Positions 1 to 13,011 of a DNA stretch of 34,135 nucleotides are shown here, one piece after another. The stretch covers positions 1 to 34,135 of the forward strand of contig CAXBPH010000044.1 in NCBI GenBank assembly GCA_963977445.1. The letters are read 5' to 3'. A model generated the notes under the pieces. It searched no databases, was not told where the DNA came from, and saw only the letters and a program-made list of their open reading frames with translations. This stretch comes from an uncultured bacterium. GTDB lineage: Bacteria; Hydrogenedentota; Hydrogenedentia; Hydrogenedentales; JAEUWI01. Made by a program: the position numbers and the translations under genes. How positions within the stretch are numbered: position 1 is the first letter of the stretch; each line of letters opens with the position of its first letter.

Positions 1-187
1 CCGGACCGGGTAGACTCTCATAATACATGGATCAGTTTACAGGGGGCAGGCCAGAACGGTAATATATCAGAGACTGTGTCTATGAGATTGTATGCCAAAC
101 TATAAGTATTCATATAAACTACGTGGCAGTCAAACTCATGCTTTTCCAGGTCTTATCAATAGCCCGCCGTTAATCTTAGAGGCATAG

Positions 188-240
188 AAAGAGCGCAAAG
201 ACGTTAAATCTTTGCGCTCTTTGCGTTCTTTCGCGGCTAT
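188..240 (-). terminator. Hairpin/REP-like element just downstream of the aldolase-SDR gene; likely acts as its terminator
   Basis: AAAGAGCGCAAAGA (188-201) pairs with TCTTTGCGCTCTTT (209-222). 9-bp periodic TCTTTGCGC/TCTTTGCGT/TCTTTCGCG units continue to about 235. On the minus strand the stem ends in TTTCT. Confidence 0.6.
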
Positions 241-252
241 CAATCTTCCAAC

Positions 253-2301
253 TTACGCCAGCATCGTCTGTCCACCGGTCACGGGCAGGGCCTGGCCGGT
301 TTCGTATTGCTGCTGCGTCAGGTACACAATCGCGCGCAAGACGTCGGGTCCCGTGCAGCCGCGACCCATGGGGACTTTGGCTTCGTAGAAATGCTTAACC
401 TCTTCCACGGTCTTCGCGCCAGGCACTTTGCCGGAGTGGAGGTACTGGACGAACAAGCCCTTTTCCGGGTCGGACCACAGGGGGCCATCGAAGAAGTTGC
501 CGGGGCACACGCTGTTGACCTTGATGCCGTCTTCTACCAACTCCAGCGCAAAAGACTGGGTAAGTCCGATGCCGCCGAATTTACTGCCGGCGTAGGCACC
601 ATTCTTGTTCGAGCCGACCAAGCCGGACTTGGAATTAATCTGAACAATGTCGCTGAGATAGCTGGGCTTGGCATGGTGTTGACGGGCCATGATGGGCGCG
701 GCGTTCTGCACGCAGAGGAAGTAGCCTTTGTAGTTCACATTGGTGACGAAGTCGAAATCGGCTTCTGGCTGTTCTTTCACGCTACCCGCTTTGACCACGC
801 CCGCGTTGGCGACAAAAAGGTCGAGGCCGCCATAGAAACGCACCACCTGATGCATGGCCTCAGCGAGGCTCGCACTGTCCGTCACGTTCATGGCAAGGCC
901 CGTGGCGCGTCCGACGCCAAACTCGGCAACCAGGCTTTCCGCAGCCATTGCCGTGCCCTCGGCATTGATATCCGCCAGGACCACGTGGGCGCCTTCGGCC
1001 GCGAGTCCCTTGGCGATTTCGAGACCGAAACCCTGGGCAGCACCGGTAACCAGCGCCACCTTGCCGTCCACAGCACCCTTGGCACGGGCACCCTGGGCGA
1101 CTTTGCGACGATAATTTTCCACTTCCCAGTTTTCGATGAAGTCCCGGTCCACTTTGGTCATGTACTCAATGCCACTGATTTTGCGGGCACCAGCCATAAT
1201 TTTAATGTCGTCGATGTAGATGTCCCGCACGGTGGCAGCGTCTTTTTGCGTATCGCCCACGGTGAACATGCCGAGGCCCTGCACCAGAATAACCAGCGGG
1301 GCGAAACCCGTCTTCTCGGTGTGGTCCACAATCGACTTCGCCAGATGCTCGCAATGAGAGGCTTCGTCCATCGTTGGATCACCCACCAACCAGAGGGGGA
1401 AGGATTTACAGTAGACAATCTGGTCGGGAATCATGGGACCGCCCAGGGCTGTCTCTTTACCATCTTGTCCGCCGACAAAGGCAGCAACCACTTCGGAATC
1501 GTCAAAGGTGACGACCTTGAGGTTGGGTCCGTCGGAGAGAAGGGCGCGAAGCATGGGGCCCATACGGTTCACCAGCTCGACGCGATGTTCGTCTTTCAGC
1601 GAGAAAATCTTGCCAAAAGGCGTGGGGGAGAGCGCGCCCATGAACGCAGTAATTTCACCCAATATCTTGTCGGTCCTGGTCTTGATCTCGTCAGGCGTTT
1701 CGCCACTGATGATGAGGCCGTGGTTCCCCATGAACACCGCTTCGGGCTCGGCCTTGCCGGTTCTCTTGGTGTATTCGGCCATGGCGTCGGCGAGTCCCTT
1801 AGAGAGGACATAGCCCGGCGTCACATAGGGCAGCCACAACACGCGGTCACCAAAGATTTTCTCGGTGAGGGATTCGCCACCCCGGGCACAGGTGATCATG
1901 TTCACGATGGTCGAGTGGGTGTGGACCACGTAGGTGCCCGGCATGAGATGGTGGAGGACGCATTCGACCGACGGACGCTGGCCGCGTTCGGGGTAAATGC
2001 GGGCCGCCATGACGGCATCCTTGAACTGGGCTTCTCGGGTGTCGATTTCGTCGCTCAGGGTGCTATTGAGGAGTTCGTCGAGGGCGTCACGGTCCATCTC
2101 CACAAAACCTTCGGGGGCGATATCGGCCAGAGAGGTGCCACTGCCCTTTACCTGGAGGCGGCGACCTTCCTTGACGGAGGTGTTGCCACCACCCGCAATA
2201 ACGAAGCTCGGGTCCGTGCCGTAAAACTGGGACAGGGCAACGAGTTTGTCCATGGGCGTGCTGAGGGTGGAAAAATCGGGCCAGGGGATGGGGGACGACA
2301 T
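253..2301 (-). CDS. Bifunctional class II aldolase / short-chain dehydrogenase (RhaEW-like architecture; SDR domain resembles sorbitol-6-phosphate dehydrogenase SrlD/SorD)
   Basis: N-terminal class II aldolase motifs GGGNTSVK, RPSVE, HTH and NHGL, then a second degenerate aldolase-like domain. C-terminal SDR with TGAAQGFG, NSKSG, YAGSK and CPGNFFDGPLW. Start moved to ATG 2301, which has GGAG 7 nt upstream; the ORF track starts at 2367. Confidence 0.85.
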   Translation of the reverse strand: MSSPIPWPDFSTLSTPMDKLVALSQFYGTDPSFVIAGGGNTSVKEGRRLQVKGSGTSLADIAPEGFVEMDRDALDELLNSTLSDEIDTREAQFKDAVMAARIYPERGQRPSVECVLHHLMPGTYVVHTHSTIVNMITCARGGESLTEKIFGDRVLWLPYVTPGYVLSKGLADAMAEYTKRTGKAEPEAVFMGNHGLIISGETPDEIKTRTDKILGEITAFMGALSPTPFGKIFSLKDEHRVELVNRMGPMLRALLSDGPNLKVVTFDDSEVVAAFVGGQDGKETALGGPMIPDQIVYCKSFPLWLVGDPTMDEASHCEHLAKSIVDHTEKTGFAPLVILVQGLGMFTVGDTQKDAATVRDIYIDDIKIMAGARKISGIEYMTKVDRDFIENWEVENYRRKVAQGARAKGAVDGKVALVTGAAQGFGLEIAKGLAAEGAHVVLADINAEGTAMAAESLVAEFGVGRATGLAMNVTDSASLAEAMHQVVRFYGGLDLFVANAGVVKAGSVKEQPEADFDFVTNVNYKGYFLCVQNAAPIMARQHHAKPSYLSDIVQINSKSGLVGSNKNGAYAGSKFGGIGLTQSFALELVEDGIKVNSVCPGNFFDGPLWSDPEKGLFVQYLHSGKVPGAKTVEEVKHFYEAKVPMGRGCTGPDVLRAIVYLTQQQYETGQALPVTGGQTMLA

Positions 2302-2341
2302 ATGAGGACTCCGGGGTCTTTTGAGAGGTGATTCCATATCG

Positions 2342-2481
2342 GGAGAGTGGGTTTTCCTACCCGCCATAAAGCGGGCGTGAAGTCATCACGCCCGCGTATG
2401 CTTTTTAATGACGCTCTGGGTCACGGCATAGCTTGTCAAACTAAGTTTGCATTGTTGCGGACAGGAATGTCCGCACTCCTA
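2342..2481. repeat. REP-doublet (REPIN)-like element with a central hairpin
   Basis: Left unit GGAGAGTGGGT-TTTCCT-ACCCGC (from 2342). Central 10-bp hairpin GCGGGCGTGA-AGTCA-TCACGCCCGC (2371-2395). Right inverted unit GCGGACA-GGAA-TGTCCGC-ACTCCTA (2457-2481). Confidence 0.55.
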
Positions 2482-3747
2482 TCCAATCGCGGGGGCGTTG
2501 GCCATGAGATAGGCTTCCGCTTCGTTGGACCACAGACCGTTGTTGCTGGCCGTGATTTCCGCGAGCTTTGCATAGAACGGGTCGTCTTTGCCCAGGTCGG
2601 CCAAATCAGAGAGTGCCACGAGAGGCAGGTTACTGTTGGTGTAAATCAGCTTTTTGCCACCGGGAATGTTCGGCAGATTAGCAATCGTCTCGGCAGCGGC
2701 ATTGAGACCACCAATGTGGGTGATCATGACGGCCGGCGTGAGTTTGCCTTCGCCCATATACTTGAGGGCGATTCGCATGTCGTTGGTGTCACCGCCGCTG
2801 TTGGCAGCCACGTGATGCGACGCATAGTGGACGTCGTAGAAATTGATGGTGGCCTTGAAGGCCGTGTCGGAAGGACCGGCAAAGAAGTTCAGACAGCCAT
2901 TGGTGCCCATGATGGCGCTCGCCTGCTCGATAAGGCCGCCAACGGGAGCAAAGACGAATACGTCGGCATAGCCTTTGCCATCGGTGATGTCTTTCATGTC
3001 CTGTACAGGATTGCCGCCGCCCGTATTCACATAATGAAGCTCAACACCATTGGCCTTTGCATCGGCCACGGTGAAGAGGGAGGCCGCACGGTCCAGGCGG
3101 GCCTGATCGATATCGGTCACCACCAGAATTTTCGGCTTGTTGGGTCCGTGAATCGCATAGTCGATAGCGCCAAGCCCCATGGGCCCCGTGCCACCGAGAA
3201 GGGCCATGTTGCCTTCCGTATCGATGCCCATCTTGTGCTCATAGGAGCCGTGGGCGAAGTGATACTGAACATTGAAGCCACCTACCACGCAGGAAACGGG
3301 CTCGGCGAGGGACGCCTGGAAATAACCTTCGCCTTCATAAGAAAGGAGGCAGTCCTGGTCCATCACTTCCTTGGGGATGATGATTTTGGTGGCATGGCCG
3401 CCCAAGTACTGGAAGGAATAGCCGGGGGCGTCGAATTCGCGACCGGGCAGGTTCAGGGCGGGCTGGAGGCTGTATTTCGCGCCTACCTTTACCTTGTCCG
3501 CCTGGTTCTTGCCGACCTGAAGGATTTCGCCGCACATCTCGTGGCCCACAATGATGGGCTTGGTCGCGATGTCTGCCGGGACCCGTTTGTGGTCGGCACC
3601 CTGCTGGAGCACCTTATACGTGGACATGCAGATACTATTCGTACGCACATCCGCGAGGATTTCGTCGTCGCCGATTTCGGGAAGCTCAAAGCTTTCAAGG
3701 CGAAGGTCATGTTTGTCATAGAGACGAAGAGCGCGGGTTTGGGTCAT
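2479..3747 (-). CDS. Zn-dependent medium-chain dehydrogenase, L-sorbose-1-phosphate reductase (SorE)-like
   Basis: LRLYDKHDLRLESFELP N-terminus, ICMSTYK, Zn motif GHE, SLAEP, nucleotide-binding GGTGPMG, GCLNFFAGP, IPGGKKLIY. AAGGA RBS upstream of the ATG. Confidence 0.85.
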   Translation of the reverse strand: MTQTRALRLYDKHDLRLESFELPEIGDDEILADVRTNSICMSTYKVLQQGADHKRVPADIATKPIIVGHEMCGEILQVGKNQADKVKVGAKYSLQPALNLPGREFDAPGYSFQYLGGHATKIIIPKEVMDQDCLLSYEGEGYFQASLAEPVSCVVGGFNVQYHFAHGSYEHKMGIDTEGNMALLGGTGPMGLGAIDYAIHGPNKPKILVVTDIDQARLDRAASLFTVADAKANGVELHYVNTGGGNPVQDMKDITDGKGYADVFVFAPVGGLIEQASAIMGTNGCLNFFAGPSDTAFKATINFYDVHYASHHVAANSGGDTNDMRIALKYMGEGKLTPAVMITHIGGLNAAAETIANLPNIPGGKKLIYTNSNLPLVALSDLADLGKDDPFYAKLAEITASNNGLWSNEAEAYLMANAPAIG

Positions 3748-3787
3748 GATGTGATTGCTTCCTTAATTGAGGCTCTTTGAAAGAGCT

Positions 3788-3845
3788 TGATTGTTTGTGA
3801 TTGATTTCTGTCATAAATATAGTATAATCTATCATGAAATTGCAA
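3788..3845. promoter_or_regulatory. Divergent sigma70-type promoter region with candidate DeoR operator
   Basis: Plus strand TTGATT (3801-3806)-N16-TATAAT (3823-3828). Minus strand TTGCAA (3845-3840)-N18-TATATT. TGATTG direct repeats at 3788 and 3798, also at 3752. AT-rich patch. Confidence 0.5.
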
Positions 3846-3853
3846 GGACGCCC

Positions 3854-4645
3854 ATGACACCGACAAGAACGATAAAGCATAAAGAGCTCGCTGCCGAACG
3901 ACTGGATCGCCTACGCGCTATTCTACGCGAAACGACCGTTGTGAGGGTAGACGAGCTATGCGCGGCGCTGGAGGTGTCCCCCGCGACGGTGCGGCGTGAT
4001 CTGGAGGAATTGGAGCGCCGTGGTGAGGCCCGACGGGTCCATGGCGGTGCGGTGGCGGTGAAGAAGAAACGCTATGAAGAGCCCGTTTTTGATGACAAGG
4101 CCGCCATAGCGCCCGGTCAGAAAGAGCGCATCGCCTTGAGAGCCCTTGAATTAATTGGGGCCCGGGAAACCATCTATCTCGATGGCGGCAGCACGGTGTT
4201 GGCCCTGGCGCGACTCCTTCGCGATCGGACCGGCCTCACGGTAGTGACCAATTCACTACGGGCGGCGTCGGAGTTGGCAGGAAGTGGTCCCCAGTTGATT
4301 TTGATTGGCGGCGAGTTACGGCGTCTCAGCCAGACCATGGTGGGGCCGTTGACGCGCTTCATGCTCGAAGAGCTACATATCGACCGCGCCTTTATGGGCA
4401 CCATTGGCATTTCCCTGGAAGAGGGCATGACGACCACCGATGCGGGGGAGGCCTATACCAAAGAGCTCGTGATGCAGCGCGCCCGAGAGGTGGTCTTGCT
4501 GGCGGACAGTGGCAAAGTGGGGGTGGTCACCTTCGCACGGGCCGGTAAGCTGACGGAGGTGGGGACCTTGGTGACCGACGGTGAATTGCCCGAGGAATAT
4601 GAAACGTATTGCGCCGAAAATGGCGTTTCGGTGGTGGTGGCGTAA
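3854..4645 (+). CDS. DeoR/GlpR family transcriptional regulator
   Basis: HTH VSPATVRRDLEELE, RVHGGAV, sensor domain IYLDGGSTV, VVTNS, IGGELR, LLADSGK. AAGGA RBS before ATG 3854. Confidence 0.93.
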   Translation: MTPTRTIKHKELAAERLDRLRAILRETTVVRVDELCAALEVSPATVRRDLEELERRGEARRVHGGAVAVKKKRYEEPVFDDKAAIAPGQKERIALRALELIGARETIYLDGGSTVLALARLLRDRTGLTVVTNSLRAASELAGSGPQLILIGGELRRLSQTMVGPLTRFMLEELHIDRAFMGTIGISLEEGMTTTDAGEAYTKELVMQRAREVVLLADSGKVGVVTFARAGKLTEVGTLVTDGELPEEYETYCAENGVSVVVA

Positions 4646-4664
4646 AGGAAATTTACTGGAAAGC

Positions 4665-4833
4665 TGCAGGGTGCCACCTACACAGACACGAGGTACGAGT
4701 GGCTTTGTGGGTGCGGCGATGCAGCATTACACACGATATATCGAGAGGTCGTTGGACCTCATAGACAAGCCGGGTCAACCTGCACCCACAAGCTTGCCGG
4801 GAACCGGCGGCGCGTGTAGGTGGCACCCATGCA
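4665..4833. repeat. Nested long inverted repeat (REP-derived mosaic or structured leader RNA)
   Basis: GGGTGCCACCTACAC (4669-4683) is a perfect 15-bp complement of 4814-4828. TTGTGGGTGC (4705-4714) pairs with 4782-4791. Internal hairpins at 4745-4760 and 4796-4808. Confidence 0.65.
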
Positions 4834-4863
4834 TTTGTACTTGAACAAACGACAGGAAAACCC

Positions 4864-6216
4864 ATGCACGAAATCAAACTACCCCAATTGGGACAGAGTG
4901 TGGAAGAGGCCGAAATTACCCAGTGGCTGAAGAAGGAAGGGGACACCGTCGAACAGGGCGAACCCATCTTCACCATTCAGACCGACAAGGCCGAAATCGA
5001 AGCCGAATCCACGGCCAGTGGCATCCTTCGGAAAATCATCATTCCTGAAGAGGTTGAGGTCCCTGTGTTGACCGTCGTTGCTCTCGTGGGTGAGGCCGAC
5101 GAAGCCCTGCCCGACCTGGCCCAATATGCCGTCGGCGGTGCACCGGCTCCCGGTGCAGAAGTGCCTGCCGCAGCAGCACCCGCACCCGTCGTTGAAACGG
5201 CCGCGCCGGTAGCGGAAAGTGCCGCACCGGTAGCGGGGGAGAGCGTCGCCAGCGGTGCCATGTCACCCCGCGCACGGTCCACGGCCCAGCGCCTCAACGT
5301 TGACGCCGCCTACTTGAGTGCCTCGGGGCCCGACGGACGGATCATCGAAGAAGACGTGCTCGACTATGACAAGAAGCGTGGTTCCGTTCGCTCAACCCCC
5401 ACGGCCCGCCGCGTGGCCAGGGAGCAGGGCATCGACATCACCGCTGTCGCACCGGGCGAAACCGGTCGCATCCACAAAGGCGATGTGTTGGGTGCTTCAT
5501 CCGCCACACCGACCGCGGCTGCCCAGGCGCAAAGCGCGCCTGTTGCCCAGCCCCTCACCGGCGCAGTGGTACCCCTTACGCCCATGCGTCGCATCATCGC
5601 CCAGCGCATGGTCGAGAGCAAGTTTGGCGCACCCCATTTTTACATCACCGTAGAAGTGGACATGAAAGAATCCGTTGCCTACCGCAGCGCGCTGCCCAAC
5701 TTCAAACCCTCCTTCAACGACCTTGTCATGCGTGCGACGACCCGGGCCATCCAGTCCTTCCCCATGGTCAACGCCAAGTGGCTGGGTGACGGCATCGAGA
5801 TGCGCGACACCATCAACCTCGGTTTTGCCGTGGCCATGGAAGCCGGCCTGATTGTTCCCGTCGTCAAGGGCATTCAGAACAAGTCCCTCCAAGACATCAA
5901 TAAAGAGTGCAAGGCCCTGGCCGAAAAGGCGCGGACCGGCAAGCTGGTGCCCGAAGATTACGCGGGCAGCACCTTCACCATCTCCAACCTCGGAGCCTTT
6001 GGCGTGGATTCCTTCACCGCCATCATCAACCAGCCCGACAGCGCAATCCTGGCCATTGGTCAAATCAAGGATCAGGCCGTGGTTATCGACGGCGGCATCC
6101 AGGTGCGTCCCATGATGAAACTCACCCTGAGCAGTGACCACCGCGTTATCGACGGTGCCGTGGCCGCCCAGTTTATGGGACGTCTCAAGACCCTACTGGA
6201 AACGGCAGACTTTTAA
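4864..6216 (+). CDS. Dihydrolipoamide acyltransferase (E2 of a 2-oxoacid/acetoin dehydrogenase-type complex)
   Basis: Lipoyl domain with TDKA, Ala/Pro-rich linker, two PSBD motifs (SPRAR..SGPDGRIIEEDV and TPTARRVARE..GRIHKGDV), catalytic TFTISNLG and DHRVIDG. Confidence 0.95.
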   Translation: MHEIKLPQLGQSVEEAEITQWLKKEGDTVEQGEPIFTIQTDKAEIEAESTASGILRKIIIPEEVEVPVLTVVALVGEADEALPDLAQYAVGGAPAPGAEVPAAAAPAPVVETAAPVAESAAPVAGESVASGAMSPRARSTAQRLNVDAAYLSASGPDGRIIEEDVLDYDKKRGSVRSTPTARRVAREQGIDITAVAPGETGRIHKGDVLGASSATPTAAAQAQSAPVAQPLTGAVVPLTPMRRIIAQRMVESKFGAPHFYITVEVDMKESVAYRSALPNFKPSFNDLVMRATTRAIQSFPMVNAKWLGDGIEMRDTINLGFAVAMEAGLIVPVVKGIQNKSLQDINKECKALAEKARTGKLVPEDYAGSTFTISNLGAFGVDSFTAIINQPDSAILAIGQIKDQAVVIDGGIQVRPMMKLTLSSDHRVIDGAVAAQFMGRLKTLLETADF

Positions 6217-6224
6217 ACATTCCC

Positions 6225-6380
6225 CTCGTTCCCAAGCGCTGCTTGGGAATGCAGGTGCCGGAGCTCTGCTCCGAAGGTGGAGGCGATGACGCCTACGCCT
6301 CCTATAAATGATTGAAACCTCGTGAGCTCTTCGAAGCGGAGCTTCGGGATACGCATTCCCAAGCGGAGCTTGGGAACGAG
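6225..6380. repeat. REPIN/MITE-like element made of two pairs of palindromes
   Basis: 28-bp terminal inverted repeats CTCGTTCCCAAGC-NCN-GCTTGGGAATGC match at 26/28 and are each self-palindromic. Inner palindromes CGGAGC-TCT-GCTCCG (6259-6273) and CGAAGC-GGA-GCTTCG (6332-6346). Confidence 0.8.
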
Positions 6381-6397
6381 AGAAAAGGAAACATACT

Positions 6398-8926
6398 ATG
6401 CCCAAACCACTTATGGTAGACCCCAAAGTAGTCCGCAAGGCCAATACCATTGACCTCGGCTCCATCCAGGTCAACGCCTACAAGAAAAGCATCAAAGAAG
6501 AGCTGAAGAGCAACAAGGCCATCACACCAGAGCGCCTCCTCCGGGCCTACCGCGACATGGTGGTCATCCGCGAATTCGAAAACATGCTCGACAGCATCAA
6601 AAAGACCCAGAGCTACGAAGGCATCAACTACAACCACGCGGGCCCGGCCCACTTGTCCACGGGACAGGAAGCCGCCGCCGTCGGTGAATGTTTTCACCTG
6701 GGCGTCAACGACCATATTTTCGGTAGCCACCGGAGCCACGGCGAAGTTATCGCCAAGGGCATGCGCGCCATTGACGAGCTGAAGGGTGCCGAACTTACGA
6801 CCCTCATGTCCGATTTCTGGGACGGCCGCGTACTCAACATTGTTGAGAAAAACGAAGCCAACTGGGCCGGCCTCAACGTGGGCAAAAAATCTGCGCTGAA
6901 AACCGGCGACGACGAAGAACTCGGTGTTGACTTCCTTCTCTATGGCCTCCTCGCGGAAATCTTTGGCCGCGAAACGGGCTTCAACAAGGGCATGGGCGGC
7001 TCCATGCACGTGTTCTTCACGCCCTTCGGTGTGTACCCCAACAACGCCCTCGTTGGTGGTAGTGCGGACATCGCGACCGGTGCAGCGCTCTACAAGAAGG
7101 TCCAACAGGCCGGTGGCATCACCGTGGCGAACATCGGCGACGCCTCCATGGGTTGCGGTCCCGTATGGGAAGCCCTCGGCTTCTCCTCCATGGGCCAGTT
7201 TACCCGCCTGTGGGAAAAAGAATTCCAGGGCGGCCTTCCCATCGTGTTCAACTTCATGAACAACTTCTACGGCATGGGCGGCCAGCCCATCGGCGAAACC
7301 ATGGGCTTTGACCACCTCGCCCGTATTGGCGCCGCGGTGAACAGCGACAACATGCACGCCGAAACCATCGACGGTAACAATCCCCTCAGCGTGGCCGACG
7401 CCTATCAGCGCAAAATGGAACTCATCAAGTCCGGCAAAGGTCCCGTACTCCTCGACGTGCAGTGCTATCGTCAGACGGGCCACTCCCCGAGTGACCAGTC
7501 CTCCTACCGCGAGCGCGACGAGATCGATATGTGGCGTAAGGCCGATGCCATCGTCGAATTCGGCGGCAAGCTCGTCAGCGCTGGTGTGGCCAGTCAGGAT
7601 GACCTCGACGCCATCCAGGCCTATGCCACCCGCAAGTGCACCAAGGCCTGCAAACTGGCCGTGGACTATGACCACTCACCCCGCCTCGTGCTCGGTGCCC
7701 GCACGGGTATCGCCGACATGATGTTCTGCAACGAAATCGACGAGACCCTGCCCGGCCTTCGTCGTGAAGACGATGTGAACATCCCCATGAGCGAAATCCC
7801 CCGCATTCAGCAGATCGCCAAAAAATCCCGTAGCGGTATCGATGCCAGCGGAAAGGTCCTCAAGGGAACCAAGGCCGTGACCTACGGCGAGGCCATTTTC
7901 GAATCCATCGTTCACCATTTCTACAACGACCACCGTCTCATCGCCTATGGCGAAGAAAACCGCGACTGGGGTGGTGCCTTCGCCGTCTACCAGGGCCTTA
8001 CGGAAGCGCTGCCTTACCGTCGCCTCTTCAACTCGCCCATCTCCGAAGCGGCCATCGTCGGCACCGGTGTGGGTTATGCCCTCGAAGGCGGCAAGGCCCT
8101 CGTGGAACTCATGTATTGCGATTTCCTCGGCCGCGCGGGCGACGAAGTCTTCAACCAGATGGCCAAATGGCAGGCCATGTCCGGCGGCTATTGCAAAATG
8201 CCCGTCGTACTCCGCGTCTCCGTGGGTAACAAATATGGTGCCCAGCACTCCCAGGATTGGACCGCTCTCTGCGCCCACATCCCCGGACTCAAAGTCGTAT
8301 TCCCCGCGACGCCCTACGACGCCAAAGGCATGATGGCCACCGCCCTCAGCGGCAACGACCCCGTTGTCTTCTTCGAGAGCCAGCGCCTCTACACCGTGCC
8401 CGAAACCGTCCACGAAGGCGGCGTGCCCGAAGAGTACTACCGCATTCCCCTCGGCGAGCCCCACGTGGCGAAGGAAGGCAACGACCTCACCATCCTCACC
8501 TTCGGTGCGACCCTCTACCGCGCGCTGGACGCCGCCAAGCAGTTCGAAGCCGAACACGGCGTCTCCGTGGAAGTCATCGACGGCCGCAGCCTCGTGCCCT
8601 TCGACTACGACATCCTGTACAAGTCCGTGAAGAAGACGGGCCGCCTCATCCTCGCCAGCGACGCCTGCGAACGGGGCAGCTTCATGCACACCATCGCATC
8701 GCGCATCAGCACCATGGCCTTCGATCACCTCGACGCACCGGCCGTCGTCTTGGGTGCCGAAAACTGGATCGTGCCCCCGGCGGAAATGGAAGAGGAATAC
8801 TTCCCCCAGGTCAACTGGTTCCTCGACGCCTTCCACACCCACTTCAAGCCTTTGGCTGGCTACACCCCCACGAACAATTTCAGCGCGGGGGAGATGCTGA
8901 GCCTTTCGAAGATGGATGTCTGCTAA
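6398..8926 (+). CDS. Fused E1 alpha/beta thiamine-diphosphate-dependent dehydrogenase (PDH/acetoin dehydrogenase-like)
   Basis: Alpha part: HLSTGQEA, HRSHG, KGMGGSMH, ThDP motif GDA...NN, YRQTGHS. Beta part: RLFNSPISEAAIVG, ELMYCDF, GAQHSQ, FPATPYDAKG, PVVFFE, VIDGRSLVP. Confidence 0.93.
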   Translation: MPKPLMVDPKVVRKANTIDLGSIQVNAYKKSIKEELKSNKAITPERLLRAYRDMVVIREFENMLDSIKKTQSYEGINYNHAGPAHLSTGQEAAAVGECFHLGVNDHIFGSHRSHGEVIAKGMRAIDELKGAELTTLMSDFWDGRVLNIVEKNEANWAGLNVGKKSALKTGDDEELGVDFLLYGLLAEIFGRETGFNKGMGGSMHVFFTPFGVYPNNALVGGSADIATGAALYKKVQQAGGITVANIGDASMGCGPVWEALGFSSMGQFTRLWEKEFQGGLPIVFNFMNNFYGMGGQPIGETMGFDHLARIGAAVNSDNMHAETIDGNNPLSVADAYQRKMELIKSGKGPVLLDVQCYRQTGHSPSDQSSYRERDEIDMWRKADAIVEFGGKLVSAGVASQDDLDAIQAYATRKCTKACKLAVDYDHSPRLVLGARTGIADMMFCNEIDETLPGLRREDDVNIPMSEIPRIQQIAKKSRSGIDASGKVLKGTKAVTYGEAIFESIVHHFYNDHRLIAYGEENRDWGGAFAVYQGLTEALPYRRLFNSPISEAAIVGTGVGYALEGGKALVELMYCDFLGRAGDEVFNQMAKWQAMSGGYCKMPVVLRVSVGNKYGAQHSQDWTALCAHIPGLKVVFPATPYDAKGMMATALSGNDPVVFFESQRLYTVPETVHEGGVPEEYYRIPLGEPHVAKEGNDLTILTFGATLYRALDAAKQFEAEHGVSVEVIDGRSLVPFDYDILYKSVKKTGRLILASDACERGSFMHTIASRISTMAFDHLDAPAVVLGAENWIVPPAEMEEEYFPQVNWFLDAFHTHFKPLAGYTPTNNFSAGEMLSLSKMDVC

Positions 8927-8956
8927 GAACAAATAATTAAGATAGGCACCTGATAC

Positions 8957-8995
8957 CCGGAGCCGTTCGCAAGAGCGGCTCCGGTATTTTTGTTT
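8957..8995 (+). terminator. Intrinsic terminator of the deoR-E2-E1 arm
   Basis: CCGGAGCCGTTC-GCAA-GAGCGGCTCCGG stem with a GNRA loop, followed by TATTTTTGTTT. Confidence 0.85.
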
Positions 8996-9291
8996 CATGG
9001 AAAAGTACTTGGGGTTCTCAATTGGAAGATGTGTTTTCGGGTAGTTGGTCGTGCCGCGCGATCCCAAAAGGCGAGTTTCAACGAGTCCTGACGGGTTCGT
9101 GCGTGAATCGTTGCACCGAACACGACACGTGCCCTGGCAAAGACTACCGTGAGCAACATACGCACCATCCGATGCGCCCTGCCGGCATAACCTGAGAAAC
9201 CATGCAAAGGCCTTCAAGGATGCACGTAAGAAATACGAAGCCCTGCCCAGACAGTACGGGCAAGGTTTAAAATATTGAAGGAAAGCAGTTC

Positions 9292-10575
9292 ATGTATGCA
9301 GGTATAGATTTTGGCACCTCCAACTGTGCGCTGGGCATCTGGCAGGAGGGTAGGCCTCACTTGGTGCCGCTGGAAGGCAATAGCGCCTATCTGCCCGCGG
9401 CCATATACACGCCTCTGGGTAAAAGCACATCGACCACCATCGCTCCAGGGACGCAAACCCTCGACGACACGTTGCGTTCAAGCGATGGCATTCTCTTTGG
9501 AAATGCCGCGATGGCGCAGCACTACAATCGTCCGGGCGAGGGGATACTTGCAAAATCCCCCAAACTCTTTCTCGGATTCCCAGAGCTGCGGGCATCCGGC
9601 GTGGAGCGGTTCTCAAAAATCGTGGGCCTCGTGCTTTCCCATATCAAGGAAACGGCGGAAGCACAGATGGGTCATCCCTTCCATAGCGTGGTGCTCGGGC
9701 GACCCGTAAACTTTTCATCCTCCGGTGACCAGGACGCCAATCGCCAGGGAGAGCGAATACTTTGGAATGGGGCAACGGCTGCGGGCTTTGAAAAGATTTC
9801 CTTTCTTCTCGAACCCATCGCGGCGGCTCTCGATTTCGAAGCAAAACTAAGCAAAGATGTAGTGGCGTTGATTGTGGACTCCGGTGGCGGCACGACCGAC
9901 TGCACCATGGCAACCTTAGGGCCATCGTATTCAGGCACCTCCAGCGTGGAAGACCGGGTGTTGGCCAATTCCGGGACGCGGGCAGGGGGCGTGGATTTCG
10001 ATAGGTCCATCGCGAGGCAGATAGTAATGCCACACTTCGGAGAGAATACCCGTTTGGAAAATGGTGAGGCCATTCCCAATCGATTGTTTTCACAGGCCAT
10101 CGCGATTAACGAGATGAAAACGATGGAAAAATTCTATGCACGGAACCTCAATGGTTTCCTGGCCAGCCCTGTTTGCCCCGAGAAAGTAAATCGGCTAAAG
10201 CGTCTGCACAAGAACCGTCAGGGCCAACAATTGGTCGGGAGCTGCGAGAATGCCAAGATTGCGCTGTCCGACGCCGAGGAGTGCACCATCACACTTGAAT
10301 ATATAGAAGAAGGTTTCTGTGTCCCGATAAATCGTGACGCCCTTCATGCGGTCGTTGAGGGGACATTGGAGAAGATTTCCAACCTTATCAGCGAAGTAGT
10401 AGAGGAAGCCCAGACGAACCCCGATCTTGTCTACGTAACCGGTGGCACCGCCAAGTCACCCCTATTAATGGCACGCATCCAATCCCACTTCCCGGACCTG
10501 GAAATCGTTTCGGGTGACAATTTCGGTAGTGTGGCTTCGGGCCTGGCACTCCACGCCCATCGCATGTACGGATAA
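9292..10575 (+). CDS. Hsp70-family protein, YegD-like (nucleotide-binding domain only)
   Basis: GIDFGTSN, VVLGRPVNF, EPIAAA, DSGGGTTD, YVTGGTAKSP, FGSVASGLA. 427 aa with no DnaK substrate-binding domain. Confidence 0.88.
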   Translation: MYAGIDFGTSNCALGIWQEGRPHLVPLEGNSAYLPAAIYTPLGKSTSTTIAPGTQTLDDTLRSSDGILFGNAAMAQHYNRPGEGILAKSPKLFLGFPELRASGVERFSKIVGLVLSHIKETAEAQMGHPFHSVVLGRPVNFSSSGDQDANRQGERILWNGATAAGFEKISFLLEPIAAALDFEAKLSKDVVALIVDSGGGTTDCTMATLGPSYSGTSSVEDRVLANSGTRAGGVDFDRSIARQIVMPHFGENTRLENGEAIPNRLFSQAIAINEMKTMEKFYARNLNGFLASPVCPEKVNRLKRLHKNRQGQQLVGSCENAKIALSDAEECTITLEYIEEGFCVPINRDALHAVVEGTLEKISNLISEVVEEAQTNPDLVYVTGGTAKSPLLMARIQSHFPDLEIVSGDNFGSVASGLALHAHRMYG

Positions 10576-10985: not shown

Positions 10986-11115
10986 TCAAGCCCGATCCCT
11001 GCCTTTTGCAGGAGAGGTCAGCGGCAATCGGCACCTCAGCCCTCATACCTTAACACCCGGTTTCCCTTCATGTTCCACAGGTGTGGTTCAAGGAAGCTCA
11101 GGAGAAGTTCCGTTC

Positions 11116-13011
11116 ATGCATGCCATCGATAAGATTCGTAATTTGGCCATTATTGCCCACATTGATCACGGCAAAACCACCCTCATTGACAGTATTTTCG
11201 CAGCGACACACGTCCGCCGAAACAATGAAGCGGTGACCGAGCGGGTCATGGATAATAACGAATTGGAACGGGAGCGGGGGATCACGATCCGCGCCAAGCA
11301 TTGCACGGTGGCGTGGGAAGATTACCTCATCAATATTATCGATACGCCCGGCCACGCGGACTTTTCCGGCGAAGTAGAGCGTACCCTTTCGATGGTGGAC
11401 TCGGTGTTGCTGCTGGTGGACGCCAATGAAGGCCCCATGCCCCAGACCCGTTATGTGCTCACCCGGGCGCTCCGTCTTGGCTATCGTCCCATTGTTATCG
11501 TAAACAAGGTGGACCGGCCCCAGGCCCAGCCCGATATTGCCCTCGACAAGACCTTCGATCTCTTCGTTGAATTGGGTGCGACCGACGAACAGTGCGACTT
11601 TCCCGTCCTTTACGGTTCCGGGCTTGACGGTTGGTTGGTACGTGACCTGGAAGACGATGCCCACGAAGGCATGCAGGCCCTTTTCGAAACCATCATCAGC
11701 GATGTACCCGCCCCGACAGGTGATCCGGAAGCGCCCTTCCTCATGCAGATCAGCACCATCGGCTGGCGCGACCACATTGGCCGTACCGGCATGGGACGCG
11801 TGCTTCAGGGCAGCCTGAACAAGGGTGATAAGTTCCGCCGCGTTTCCACCCAGTGGATTGGCGAGAAACTGGCCCAGCATGATGACTTCCATCATGAGCG
11901 GGAATGGGATATTACGGAAGACAAGACCGAAAAGTGCACCTATCTCTGGGTGACCCGTGGTCTTGAAAGTGAATTGGTTGACACGGTCCGGGCCGGTGAC
12001 ATTGTTACAATTGCAGGCCCCGGGGACATCAATATTGGTGATACCTTCTCCCACGTGGACCTCGATAATGTGCTCCACCCGCTGGAAATTGAAGAGCCCA
12101 CCGTTTCCATGAACTTCATGATGAACAATGGTCCCTTCTCCGGTCAGGAAGGTGACGCGGTCACCCTGCGTCAGATTGCTGTCCGACTGGAAAAAGAAAT
12201 GCGTACCAACGTGGCGCTCCGGGTCGAAGAGACCGAACGCGGCGATTCCCTGAAGGTTTCCGGTCGTGGCGAACTTCACCTGGCCATCCTCCTCGAAGAA
12301 ATGCGTCGGGAAGGCATGGAACTTTGCGTGTCGCCCCCTGAAGTTATCATCCACCGTGATGAAAACAACAAGCGCCTGGAGCCGATAGAGCTGCTGAGCA
12401 TCGATACCCCCGGCGAATTCCAGGGCACGGTTATCGAAAAGCTGGCCCAGCGTAAGGGTGAGTTGTCCCACATGCACATCGAAGATTCGGGCATGGTACG
12501 ACTTGAATTCCGTATTCCTACCCGTGGTCTCATTGGCTATCGCGGCGAGTTCCTTACGGATACCCGCGGCATGGGCATCATGGCATCCCGTTTTGAGGGC
12601 TATGGCCCCTGGTGCGGTGATGTAGTCACCCGTAAGCGCGGCTCCATGGTCAGCATGGAAACCGGCCAGAGCACCTCCTACAGCCTCGAAAACCTCCAAC
12701 AGCGCGGCACCCTCTTCCTGGGCTCCATGGTTGGCGTCTATGAAGGCATGATTATCGGTGAATATTCCCGTCCCGGCGATATGCCCTGTAAGCCTACCAA
12801 GAAGAAGGCCCTCACCAACCACCGCGCCTCCGGTAAAGACCACAGCACGGGCCTGGAAGTTCCCCGCGAACTCACCCTCGACACCGCACTGGAATGGATT
12901 GCGCCCGATGAGTTGGTGGAAATCACCCCAAAAGGCATCCGGGTCCGCAAATCGGTACTGAACGCTGAAGAGCGCAAGCGTGACGAGAAGCGCCGGTCAG
13001 CAACCGCCTGA
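11116..13011 (+). CDS. typA: Translational GTPase TypA/BipA
   Basis: [77 protein letters not shown] upstream of ATG 11116. Confidence 0.97.

Follow-up and report, generated by a model that had tools for sequence, protein, structure and literature searches.

A thiamine diphosphate/lipoamide dehydrogenase module probably tied to rhamnose and fucose catabolism in Hydrogenedentota and other bacterial phyla

Pectin and the glycans of algae and mucin are rich in rhamnose and fucose, and the textbook routes for both sugars end at lactaldehyde. The locus considered here opens a 34,135-nucleotide stretch of DNA (the window) from an uncultured bacterium of the phylum Hydrogenedentota and holds five genes, at positions 253–8995, in two divergent arms. 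The minus arm encodes a fusion of a class II aldolase with a short-chain dehydrogenase (SDR), referred to as AldSDR, and a SorE-like medium-chain dehydrogenase (MDR), ADH422. The plus arm encodes a DeoR-family regulator, a dihydrolipoyl acyltransferase (E2), and a fused α–β E1 that depends on thiamine diphosphate (ThDP). All five genes lie where the first-pass annotation of the window had placed them, in a divergent locus with hairpins at both ends. The closest described gene set is that of Caldicellulosiruptor bescii, which comprises Athe_0695 (FucA), Athe_0696 (RhaD1), Athe_0698 (SrlD), Athe_0699 (SorE, marked “Sorbose?”), Athe_0702–4 (E2/E3/E1), Athe_0705 (RhaR2, DeoR), and Athe_0706 (RhaA) (PMC8579813). 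Athe_0702–4 are homologous to acetoin dehydrogenase and are listed, without a function, as a “predicted dehydrogenase in rhamnose utilization” (PMC8579813).

The same paper proposes Athe_0702–4 for the final lactaldehyde step of rhamnose catabolism, the usual lactaldehyde reductase and dehydrogenase genes being missing in Caldicellulosiruptor. In Caldicellulosiruptor saccharolyticus, rhamnose strongly raises expression of the orthologous cluster, Csac_0865–0876, whose presence goes together with growth on this sugar; the products from rhamnose are 1,2-propanediol, acetate, H2, and CO2 at 1:1:1:1 (PMC4187192). The window system had been put forward as undescribed, which is too strong given that these two papers already list the module without a function. 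The module is widespread and has already drawn notice in the literature, and it is the chemistry that would lead from deoxy sugar to acetyl-CoA that is proposed here, from sequence. Another closely related system is RhaEW of Chloroflexus and Bacillus, which converts rhamnulose-1-phosphate to dihydroxyacetone phosphate (DHAP) and L-lactate and with which neither product appeared when NAD+ was left out (PMC3870299). An oxidation preceding C–C cleavage would also fit this need for NAD+ in DHAP release. Lactate dehydrogenase genes belong to some RhaR regulons (PMC3870299).

It is probable, at about 85%, that the window E1 and E2 are components of a conserved module associated with the catabolism of rhamnose and fucose. 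Loci centered on E1 were taken from the best 80 of 902 confirmed relatives, found with a 9-sequence E1 alignment as the query (a 24-sequence version was too diverse). Ten of these loci, from Hydrogenedentota or from unlabeled close relatives, were left out, and the analyzed set is the remaining 70 (L081–L150), which come from Bacillota, Bacteroidota, Planctomycetota, Armatimonadota, Spirochaetota, Verrucomicrobiota, Lentisphaerota, Chloroflexota, and others. Among these 70 loci, E2 is found in 39, the lipoamide dehydrogenase E3 in 35, a DeoR regulator in 21, and a GntR regulator in 12. The sugar-type neighbors are an SDR or AldSDR (35 loci), a PHP-domain protein of ~420 amino acids (29), a SorE-like MDR (25), RhaB (6), RhaA (5), and a separate class II aldolase of ~360 amino acids (4); LplA is found in four loci. 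At least one sugar-type partner (MDR, SrlD- or RhaW-like SDR, PHP protein, RhaA, RhaB, or class II aldolase) is present in 38 of the 70 loci and in 32 of the 51 that span at least 12 kb, and in 29 of these 51 a DeoR or GntR regulator is adjacent. The linkage of E1 to sugar genes extends over at least six phyla, and linkage to DeoR is likewise conserved across phyla; the first-pass annotation had named a lack of conserved linkage to sugar genes as grounds for refuting its reading.

Further neighbors of E1 are RhaT, phosphatases of the HAD type, and, together with an MtlD-like gene, a PfkB kinase; in a related locus, the L-fucose isomerase FucI is encoded directly upstream of DeoR-E2-E3-E1. Full sets of the module (E1/E2/E3, DeoR, MDR, SDR, aldolase, and RhaA) are present in three loci (L084, L090, and L099). 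In three of the five clostridial genomes checked, RhaA lies beside the ~360-residue aldolase on another contig, and in two of those clostridial genomes RhaB is inside the E1 cluster (L129 and L120). In the E1 tree, which was built with FastTree only, the window type (type A) forms a tight clade on a long stem; its subclades follow phyla, and linkage to sugar genes is found in every subclade.

The same association emerges when the search is started from the dehydrogenase. Metagenome contigs searched with ADH422 yielded 80 loci, of which 44 span 8 kb or more. Within these 44, an SDR is encoded in 16 and an AldSDR in 8, the PHP protein in 18, RhaB in 7, and E1, E2, E3, and DeoR in 11 each. The tightest core consists of MDR, SDR, and PHP protein and is often joined to the complex. 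The PHP-domain family was recognized from two clusters of open reading frames (ORFs) without a clear Pfam match, which are one family; its members, of 412–434 amino acids (for example, L136:12489–13730 and L096:3295–4599), are the third core partner of MDR and SDR. When the window genome was searched for the PHP protein, the one match was weak and partial, to a 255-residue ORF on contig C290 that is not an orthologue.

Lipoylation genes also occur in these clusters. In two Bacillota loci (L107 and L130), genes for LipB/LplA-like and radical-SAM (LipA-like) proteins lie between MDR and E2, and LplA is encoded in four further clusters. This arrangement suggests that the window-type complex is a main lipoylated protein of the organisms with lipoylation genes in the cluster.

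The window genome, a Hydrogenedentota metagenome-assembled genome of 7.1 Mb in 464 contigs that is 94% complete, carries a separate pyruvate dehydrogenase (PDH). The names attached to close homologues of the window E1 are likewise those of Hydrogenedentota. A fragment of aceE runs off the end of contig C194, and on contig C232 an E2 gene (aceF) cut by the contig start is followed by lpd (C232:1145–2521). In the relatives checked, a full aceE adjoins an E2 in five of five. The window E1 and E2 therefore form a second complex and not the housekeeping PDH, as had been supposed, and the proposal that they are the only PDH of the genome is rejected. The first-pass annotation had also found no phosphotransferase system (PTS), kinase, or E3; this stands for positions 1–9000 of the window, by ORF list and profile search, and fails for the whole genome, which encodes the kinase RhaB (contig C20) and a second lpd (C83:9286–10647). 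This lpd is most likely the E3 of the window complex, acting in trans.

The second lpd lies in an operon (C83:6898–11868; L160) of a mannitol-1-phosphate-dehydrogenase-like (MtlD-like) gene, the lipoamide dehydrogenase gene, and a gene for a YfhO membrane protein. In three other Hydrogenedentota genomes (G034, G092, and G132), an orthologue of the window E2 (56–60% identity) is found within an operon of the order MtlD-like/E2/E3/YfhO. The window genome has the same operon without E2, and by this comparison E2 appears to have moved beside E1 in the window lineage. A third, weak match to the 2-oxoacid_dh catalytic domain (71.5 and 56.8 bits) is found in a 370-residue frame on contig C19 (C19:28346–29239).

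Both window subunits have the domains of an ordinary complex. E2 matches the Pfam domains 2-oxoacid_dh (269.2 bits), E3_binding, and Biotin_lipoyl and has the lipoyl motif DKA at residues 41–43 and the catalytic motif DHRVIDG at 425. E1 matches E1_dh (142.4 bits), Transket_pyr (107.7), and Transketolase_C (94.2), all above the cutoffs. Its motifs, GDA at 247–249 followed by NN at 288–289, GHS at 361–363, and HSQ at 617–619, stand at positions that are invariant in the 9-sequence alignment. We take GDG...NN to be the ThDP-binding motif, and two histidines to be active-site residues, of α/β-type E1s. The catalytic motifs are those of ordinary E1s and do not discriminate between a 2-oxoacid and a ketol substrate. 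The best curated models for E1 and E2 are of PDH types; for E1, these are PDH α (TIGR03182; 192.4 bits versus a cutoff of 393.85) and PDH β (NF006667; 245 versus 321).

The distribution of E1 within the phylum bears on whether the complex is a second 2-oxoacid dehydrogenase of general function, either branched-chain or an additional PDH isoenzyme, to which the sugar genes are merely adjacent. In 135 Hydrogenedentota genomes, in which E1 was counted by hand, whole or as a fragment, a type-A E1 (62–100% identity) is present in 111. RhaA is found in 88 of the 135 genomes, ADH422 in 19, and an AldSDR of the window type in 12; six further matches to AldSDR are aldolases of 30–41% identity. RhaA is found in 84 of 113 E1-bearing genomes versus 4 of 22 without E1, a cross-tabulation made by hand on genomes that are kin and hence not a statistical test. 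Of 40 sampled loci, 8 have DeoR and E2 beside the type-A E1, and these 8 belong to families f1, f11, and f12; in 30, E1 is alone in unconserved surroundings. Both the wide presence of E1 in the phylum and its solitary setting in 30 of 40 loci would be expected of a general dehydrogenase, as would the name “2-oxoisovalerate dehydrogenase E1” that homologues carry at the Joint Genome Institute (JGI). The window E1 is, moreover, the sole PF00676-type E1 of its genome. The first-pass annotation had named as a refuting case that the complex be the only PDH or branched-chain 2-oxoacid dehydrogenase (BCKDH) of the genome; the genome has another PDH, but a BCKDH role is formally possible for the only E1 of this type. 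Such a role is nonetheless improbable. Linkage to sugar genes is seen in every E1 subclade and in at least six phyla and is recovered from the MDR side as well, sugar-type DeoR or GntR regulators adjoin E1 in 29 of the 51 long loci, E2 is closest to PDH-type rather than branched-chain models, and even the “orphan” lineages keep E2 and E3 beside the MtlD-like gene.

Two genomes of the phylum, G032 and G002, have no type-A E1 and only a fused E1 of 40–42% identity. This E1 belongs to a second fused lineage, of ~765 amino acids and 37–42% identity, that is found with E2 and E3 in L066 (G032) and L055 (G002). The second lineage adjoins ADH422, together with DeoR, RhaA, and AldSDR in one of the genomes and with the PHP protein and SDR in the other. 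In G032, the AldSDR orthologue adjoins RhaA.

In the window genome, RhaA (55% identity) and RhaB (48%) are encoded on contigs C48 and C20, among unrelated genes. Beside RhaB lies a gene for a 666-residue protein (L158:4748–6748) with a 4Fe-4S dicluster domain and two CCG domains, resembling LutA/LutB or GlcF; by its domains, this protein could be a lactate- or glycolate-type oxidase. AldSDR is the sole match to a RhaE-type aldolase in the genome. It matches Aldolase_II (70.6 bits) and adh_short (158.3 bits) and contains an HTH (HxH) motif at residues 149–151, TGAAQGFG at 441, and YAGSK at 592. Its score against the RhaD_aldol-ADH model TIGR02632 is 347.9 bits, under the cutoff of 567.75, and judged by sequence AldSDR is nearest to RhaEW, though below the threshold for that family. 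The SDR domain comes nearest to sorbitol-6-phosphate dehydrogenase models, at 237.5 bits versus a cutoff of 307; the SDR of a clostridial cluster passes this SrlD cutoff (365.6 versus 307).

With the annotated SorE of the classical sor operon of Klebsiella, the MDR shares 51.3% identity across 100% of the query, in agreement with its first-pass designation as SorE-like, and it is likewise 51% identical, at full length, to annotated sorE products of Citrobacter and Serratia. Its matches to Pfam ADH_N and ADH_zinc_N are weak. Candidate ligands of the catalytic zinc are Cys40, His69-Glu70, and Glu149, the NAD motif GTGPMG stands at residue 186, and the sequence has no cysteine cluster for a structural zinc. 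The closest solved structures are polyol dehydrogenases, namely xylitol and sorbitol dehydrogenases. The SorD-like call and a sorbose context are not supported. The SDR domain shares just 28% identity with SorD of Klebsiella, the fusion is RhaEW-like, neither a PTS nor SorC is present, and related loci carry RhaA, RhaB, RhaT, and FucI. A sorbose pathway was rejected accordingly.

The regulator gives matches to HTH_DeoR (57.1 bits) and DeoRC (155.9 bits), and its best NCBIfam models are of the GlpR, AgaR, and SrlR types, each under its cutoff. Its listed ORF starts at a TTG (3791), and the true start is likely to be the ATG at 3855, from which the protein would have 263 amino acids, as in the same-genus orthologue. 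The region between MDR and DeoR contains the repeat GATTG-N5-GATTG, a candidate DeoR operator, and the GATTG repeat block is kept in same-genus loci (L031–L034). The stricter form TGATTG-N4-TGATTG occurs just twice in the window genome.

Taken together, these features suggest the following route, all of whose substrates we infer. A DeoR-type repressor would control an acetyl-transferring ThDP/lipoamide complex (the fused E1 and E2 of the window, with E3 supplied in trans from C83), a RhaEW-like AldSDR, and a SorE-family dehydrogenase. RhaA and RhaB, whose genes are on other contigs, would yield L-rhamnulose-1-phosphate, which AldSDR would split into DHAP and a C3 unit, presumably L-lactate as for RhaEW elsewhere. 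The C3 unit would then be oxidized to pyruvate, a step for which, or for a redox step on lactaldehyde or a ketose, the MDR is a candidate. Finally, E1/E2/E3 would convert pyruvate to acetyl-CoA, CO2, and NADH. Pyruvate as the E1 substrate agrees with the product of RhaEW, with the PDH-like nature of the best models, and with the product ratio in Caldicellulosiruptor, and we adopt it tentatively, at somewhat less than even odds.

The complex might instead act directly on L-lactaldehyde, or on a close C3 hydroxy-carbonyl compound, and form lactyl-CoA or acetyl-CoA. Lactaldehyde is common to the rhamnose and fucose routes, to both of which the module is linked, and this reading agrees with the final rhamnose step proposed for Athe_0702–4 (PMC8579813). 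What Caldicellulosiruptor excretes, however, is 1,2-propanediol rather than lactate (PMC4187192). Among the neighbors scanned, no gene for a phosphotransacylase or kinase was seen. We know of no E1 of the window family that accepts an aldehyde, and direct action on lactaldehyde is quite unlikely. Like a general dehydrogenase, it is less likely than either pyruvate oxidation or the cleavage discussed next.

Several observations weigh against pyruvate. E1 and E2 fall under every PDH cutoff (E2 scores 355.7 bits against the PDH E2 model TIGR01349, versus 445), and E1 is on a long branch of the FastTree tree. Pyruvate is already oxidized by other means in these genomes, by AceEF in that of the window. 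Neither a lactate dehydrogenase nor a lactate permease is found among the 63 neighbor proteins scanned. E1, in 111 of 135 genomes, is far commoner than the MDR or AldSDR type and hence is independent of them. A search of the 300 bp preceding rhaA, rhaB, and the MtlD-like gene showed no copy of the candidate operator motif, and therefore no regulon link is demonstrable. Two features fit sugar-phosphate chemistry better than C3 chemistry: the MDR shares 51% identity with a reductase of a ketose-1-phosphate, and a clostridial SDR passes the SrlD cutoff. Pyruvate oxidation also leaves unexplained the PHP protein, the MtlD-like gene beside E2-E3, and the SorE-like MDR.

A shift of the carbonyl group followed by an acetoin-type cleavage would account for the sugar-phosphate dehydrogenases and the divergent E1. 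The MDR would reduce C2 of L-rhamnulose-1-phosphate (or L-fuculose-1-phosphate) to a 6-deoxyhexitol phosphate, and the SrlD/RhaW-like SDR, or an MtlD-like enzyme, would oxidize the carbon beside the methyl group, giving a 1-deoxy-ketohexose-6-phosphate (CH3-CO-CHOH-R). E1 would cleave this 1-deoxy-ketose phosphate to acetyl-CoA, NADH, and a tetrose-4-phosphate, with neither CO2 nor lactaldehyde formed. Correction of the stereochemistry, or handling of the tetrose phosphate, would fall to the class II aldolase-fold domain or to the PHP protein. AcoABCL, which cleaves acetoin and methylacetoin, is a precedent for the cleavage. The kinship of the MDR to true SorE and of the clostridial SDR to the SrlD equivalog counts in favor of such a route, as does the recurrence of three unrelated polyol-phosphate dehydrogenase families (MDR, SDR, and MtlD-like) beside E1/E2/E3. 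The commonest neighbors of the MDR in the long loci are an SDR or AldSDR (24 of 44) and the PHP protein (18 of 44), and RhaB is found in an operon with E2-E3-PHP-SDR-MDR, with RhaA and the aldolase apart. The divergent stem of E1 and the lipoylation genes within clusters of anaerobes are also in keeping with it.

The complete chemistry of this route is without precedent, and the literature searches made returned no paper describing it. The SDR of Bacteroidota, like that of the window, forms a single chain with a RhaE aldolase, and RhaEW gives DHAP and lactate (PMC3870299). In C. saccharolyticus, one 1,2-propanediol is formed per rhamnose, which leaves no flux for such a cleavage under the conditions used (PMC4187192). 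That the module is linked to rhamnose genes as well as fucose genes has a simpler explanation in lactaldehyde, the product common to the two routes, and the excess of E1 over MDR and window-type AldSDR in the phylum counts against this cleavage too. The carbonyl shift is thus possible but doubtful, and pyruvate oxidation is preferred to it.

The coordinates of the locus are given in Table 1. The window begins at base 1 of its contig (C44), where the view downstream of AldSDR ends; in a same-genus locus (L031), the next ORF downstream of AldSDR encodes 307 amino acids without a Pfam match. The palindromic hairpin after AldSDR could terminate transcription in both directions. The spacer between DeoR and E2 gives 35 blastn matches in its own genome, in units of ~48 bp on many contigs, and that between E2 and E1 gives 46, in units of ~55 bp, also on many contigs. 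From these patterns, both repeat families look like repetitive extragenic palindromic (REP) or miniature inverted-repeat transposable element (MITE) sequences. With the same repeats dispersed genome-wide, the hairpins of the two spacers were rejected as locus-specific signals.

Table 1. Features of the locus, by position in the window
Feature	Position	Strand	Description
Palindromic hairpin after AldSDR	188-222	.	perfect palindrome, 14-bp stem
AldSDR, RhaEW-like	253-2367	-	704 aa; Aldolase_II + adh_short fusion
Further hairpin between MDR and AldSDR genes	2371-2395		
MDR (ADH422), SorE-family medium-chain Zn dehydrogenase	2479-3747	-	422 aa
Divergent promoter region, MDR/DeoR	3748-3854	.	GATTG-N5-GATTG at 3789; TTGATT-16-TATAAT promoter-like site at 3801-3828
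DeoR-family regulator	3791-4645 (listed ORF); likely 3855-4645	+	TTG start at 3791 in listed ORF
Dispersed palindromic repeat in DeoR-E2 spacer	4669-4828	.	inverted repeats 4669-4683/4814-4828 and 4705-4714/4782-4791
E2, dihydrolipoyl acyltransferase	4864-6216	+	lipoyl, E3-binding, and catalytic domains
Second dispersed palindromic repeat, in E2-E1 spacer	6220-6385	.	57-nt inverted arms
Fused E1 α-β, ThDP-dependent	6398-8926	+	842 aa; E1_dh, Transket_pyr, Transketolase_C
Intrinsic-terminator-like hairpin after E1	8957-8984	+	12 pairs, 9 G-C, then T-run

Downstream of the locus, the window encodes a YegD-like chaperone of the Hsp70 family (9292–10575; NF008673, 408 bits, above the cutoff) and typA/bipA (11083–13011). 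Neither the YegD-like Hsp70 gene nor typA shows conserved adjacency to E1 beyond the genus.

A dedicated ThDP/lipoamide complex inside the deoxy-sugar clusters of polysaccharide degraders is thus found in at least six phyla, and many of these degraders belong to anaerobic groups. The position of the complex within deoxy-sugar clusters therefore implies a pathway extension or new chemistry that is missing from metabolic models. An answer as to the substrate would alter predictions of carbon and redox balance for gut, rumen, sediment, and wastewater communities, and the carbonyl shift, if true, would make this the first lipoamide complex with a sugar phosphate as its physiological substrate.

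Compared with the sor operon of Klebsiella (sorCDFBAME; L243), the window shares a SorE homologue, 51% identical to the MDR, and an SDR partner. It differs in having no PTS and no SorC, in the 28% identity of its SDR to SorD, and in a context of deoxyhexose genes and a lipoamide complex. With AcoABCL and the α2β2-type PDH, the window complex has in common an α/β-type ThDP E1, a lipoyl E2 with a catalytic domain, and a lipoamide dehydrogenase. Unlike in those complexes, α and β are fused in the window E1, which has 842 residues with an N-terminal extension and an insert, and the regulator is of a sugar type.

The RhaEW/RhaR pathway of Bacillus subtilis and Chloroflexus aurantiacus shares with the window the fusion of Aldolase_II and SDR, and RhaA and RhaB are present in the window genome (PMC3870299). 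RhaR is a DeoR-type regulator with direct-repeat operators of ~10-bp period, and the window has a DeoR regulator together with GATTG-N5-GATTG, a candidate operator conserved in the genus. RhaEW is stated to lie “always” within the rha locus (PMC3870299), whereas rhaA and rhaB of the window genome are unlinked to AldSDR, on C48 and C20. A search of the text of PMC3870299 for “pyruvate dehydrogenase,” “dehydrogenase complex,” and “acetoin” gave no mention of a lipoamide complex, and none of a SorE-like MDR was found in that text.

The Caldicellulosiruptor cluster is like the window module in the kinds of genes that it contains, as matched by the annotation in the papers and not by sequence. Its order, E2-E3-E1-DeoR, is that of four clostridial loci (L086, L088, L117, and L120), whereas the order in the window is DeoR-E2-E1, with aldolase and SDR fused and with E3, RhaA, RhaB, and any PHP protein not in cis. 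E3 is encoded in cis in 35 of the 70 loci of other phyla, unlike in the window. Of the gene set of the Athe_0695–0706 type, the window genome thus has four kinds in cis, and E3 and RhaA in trans.

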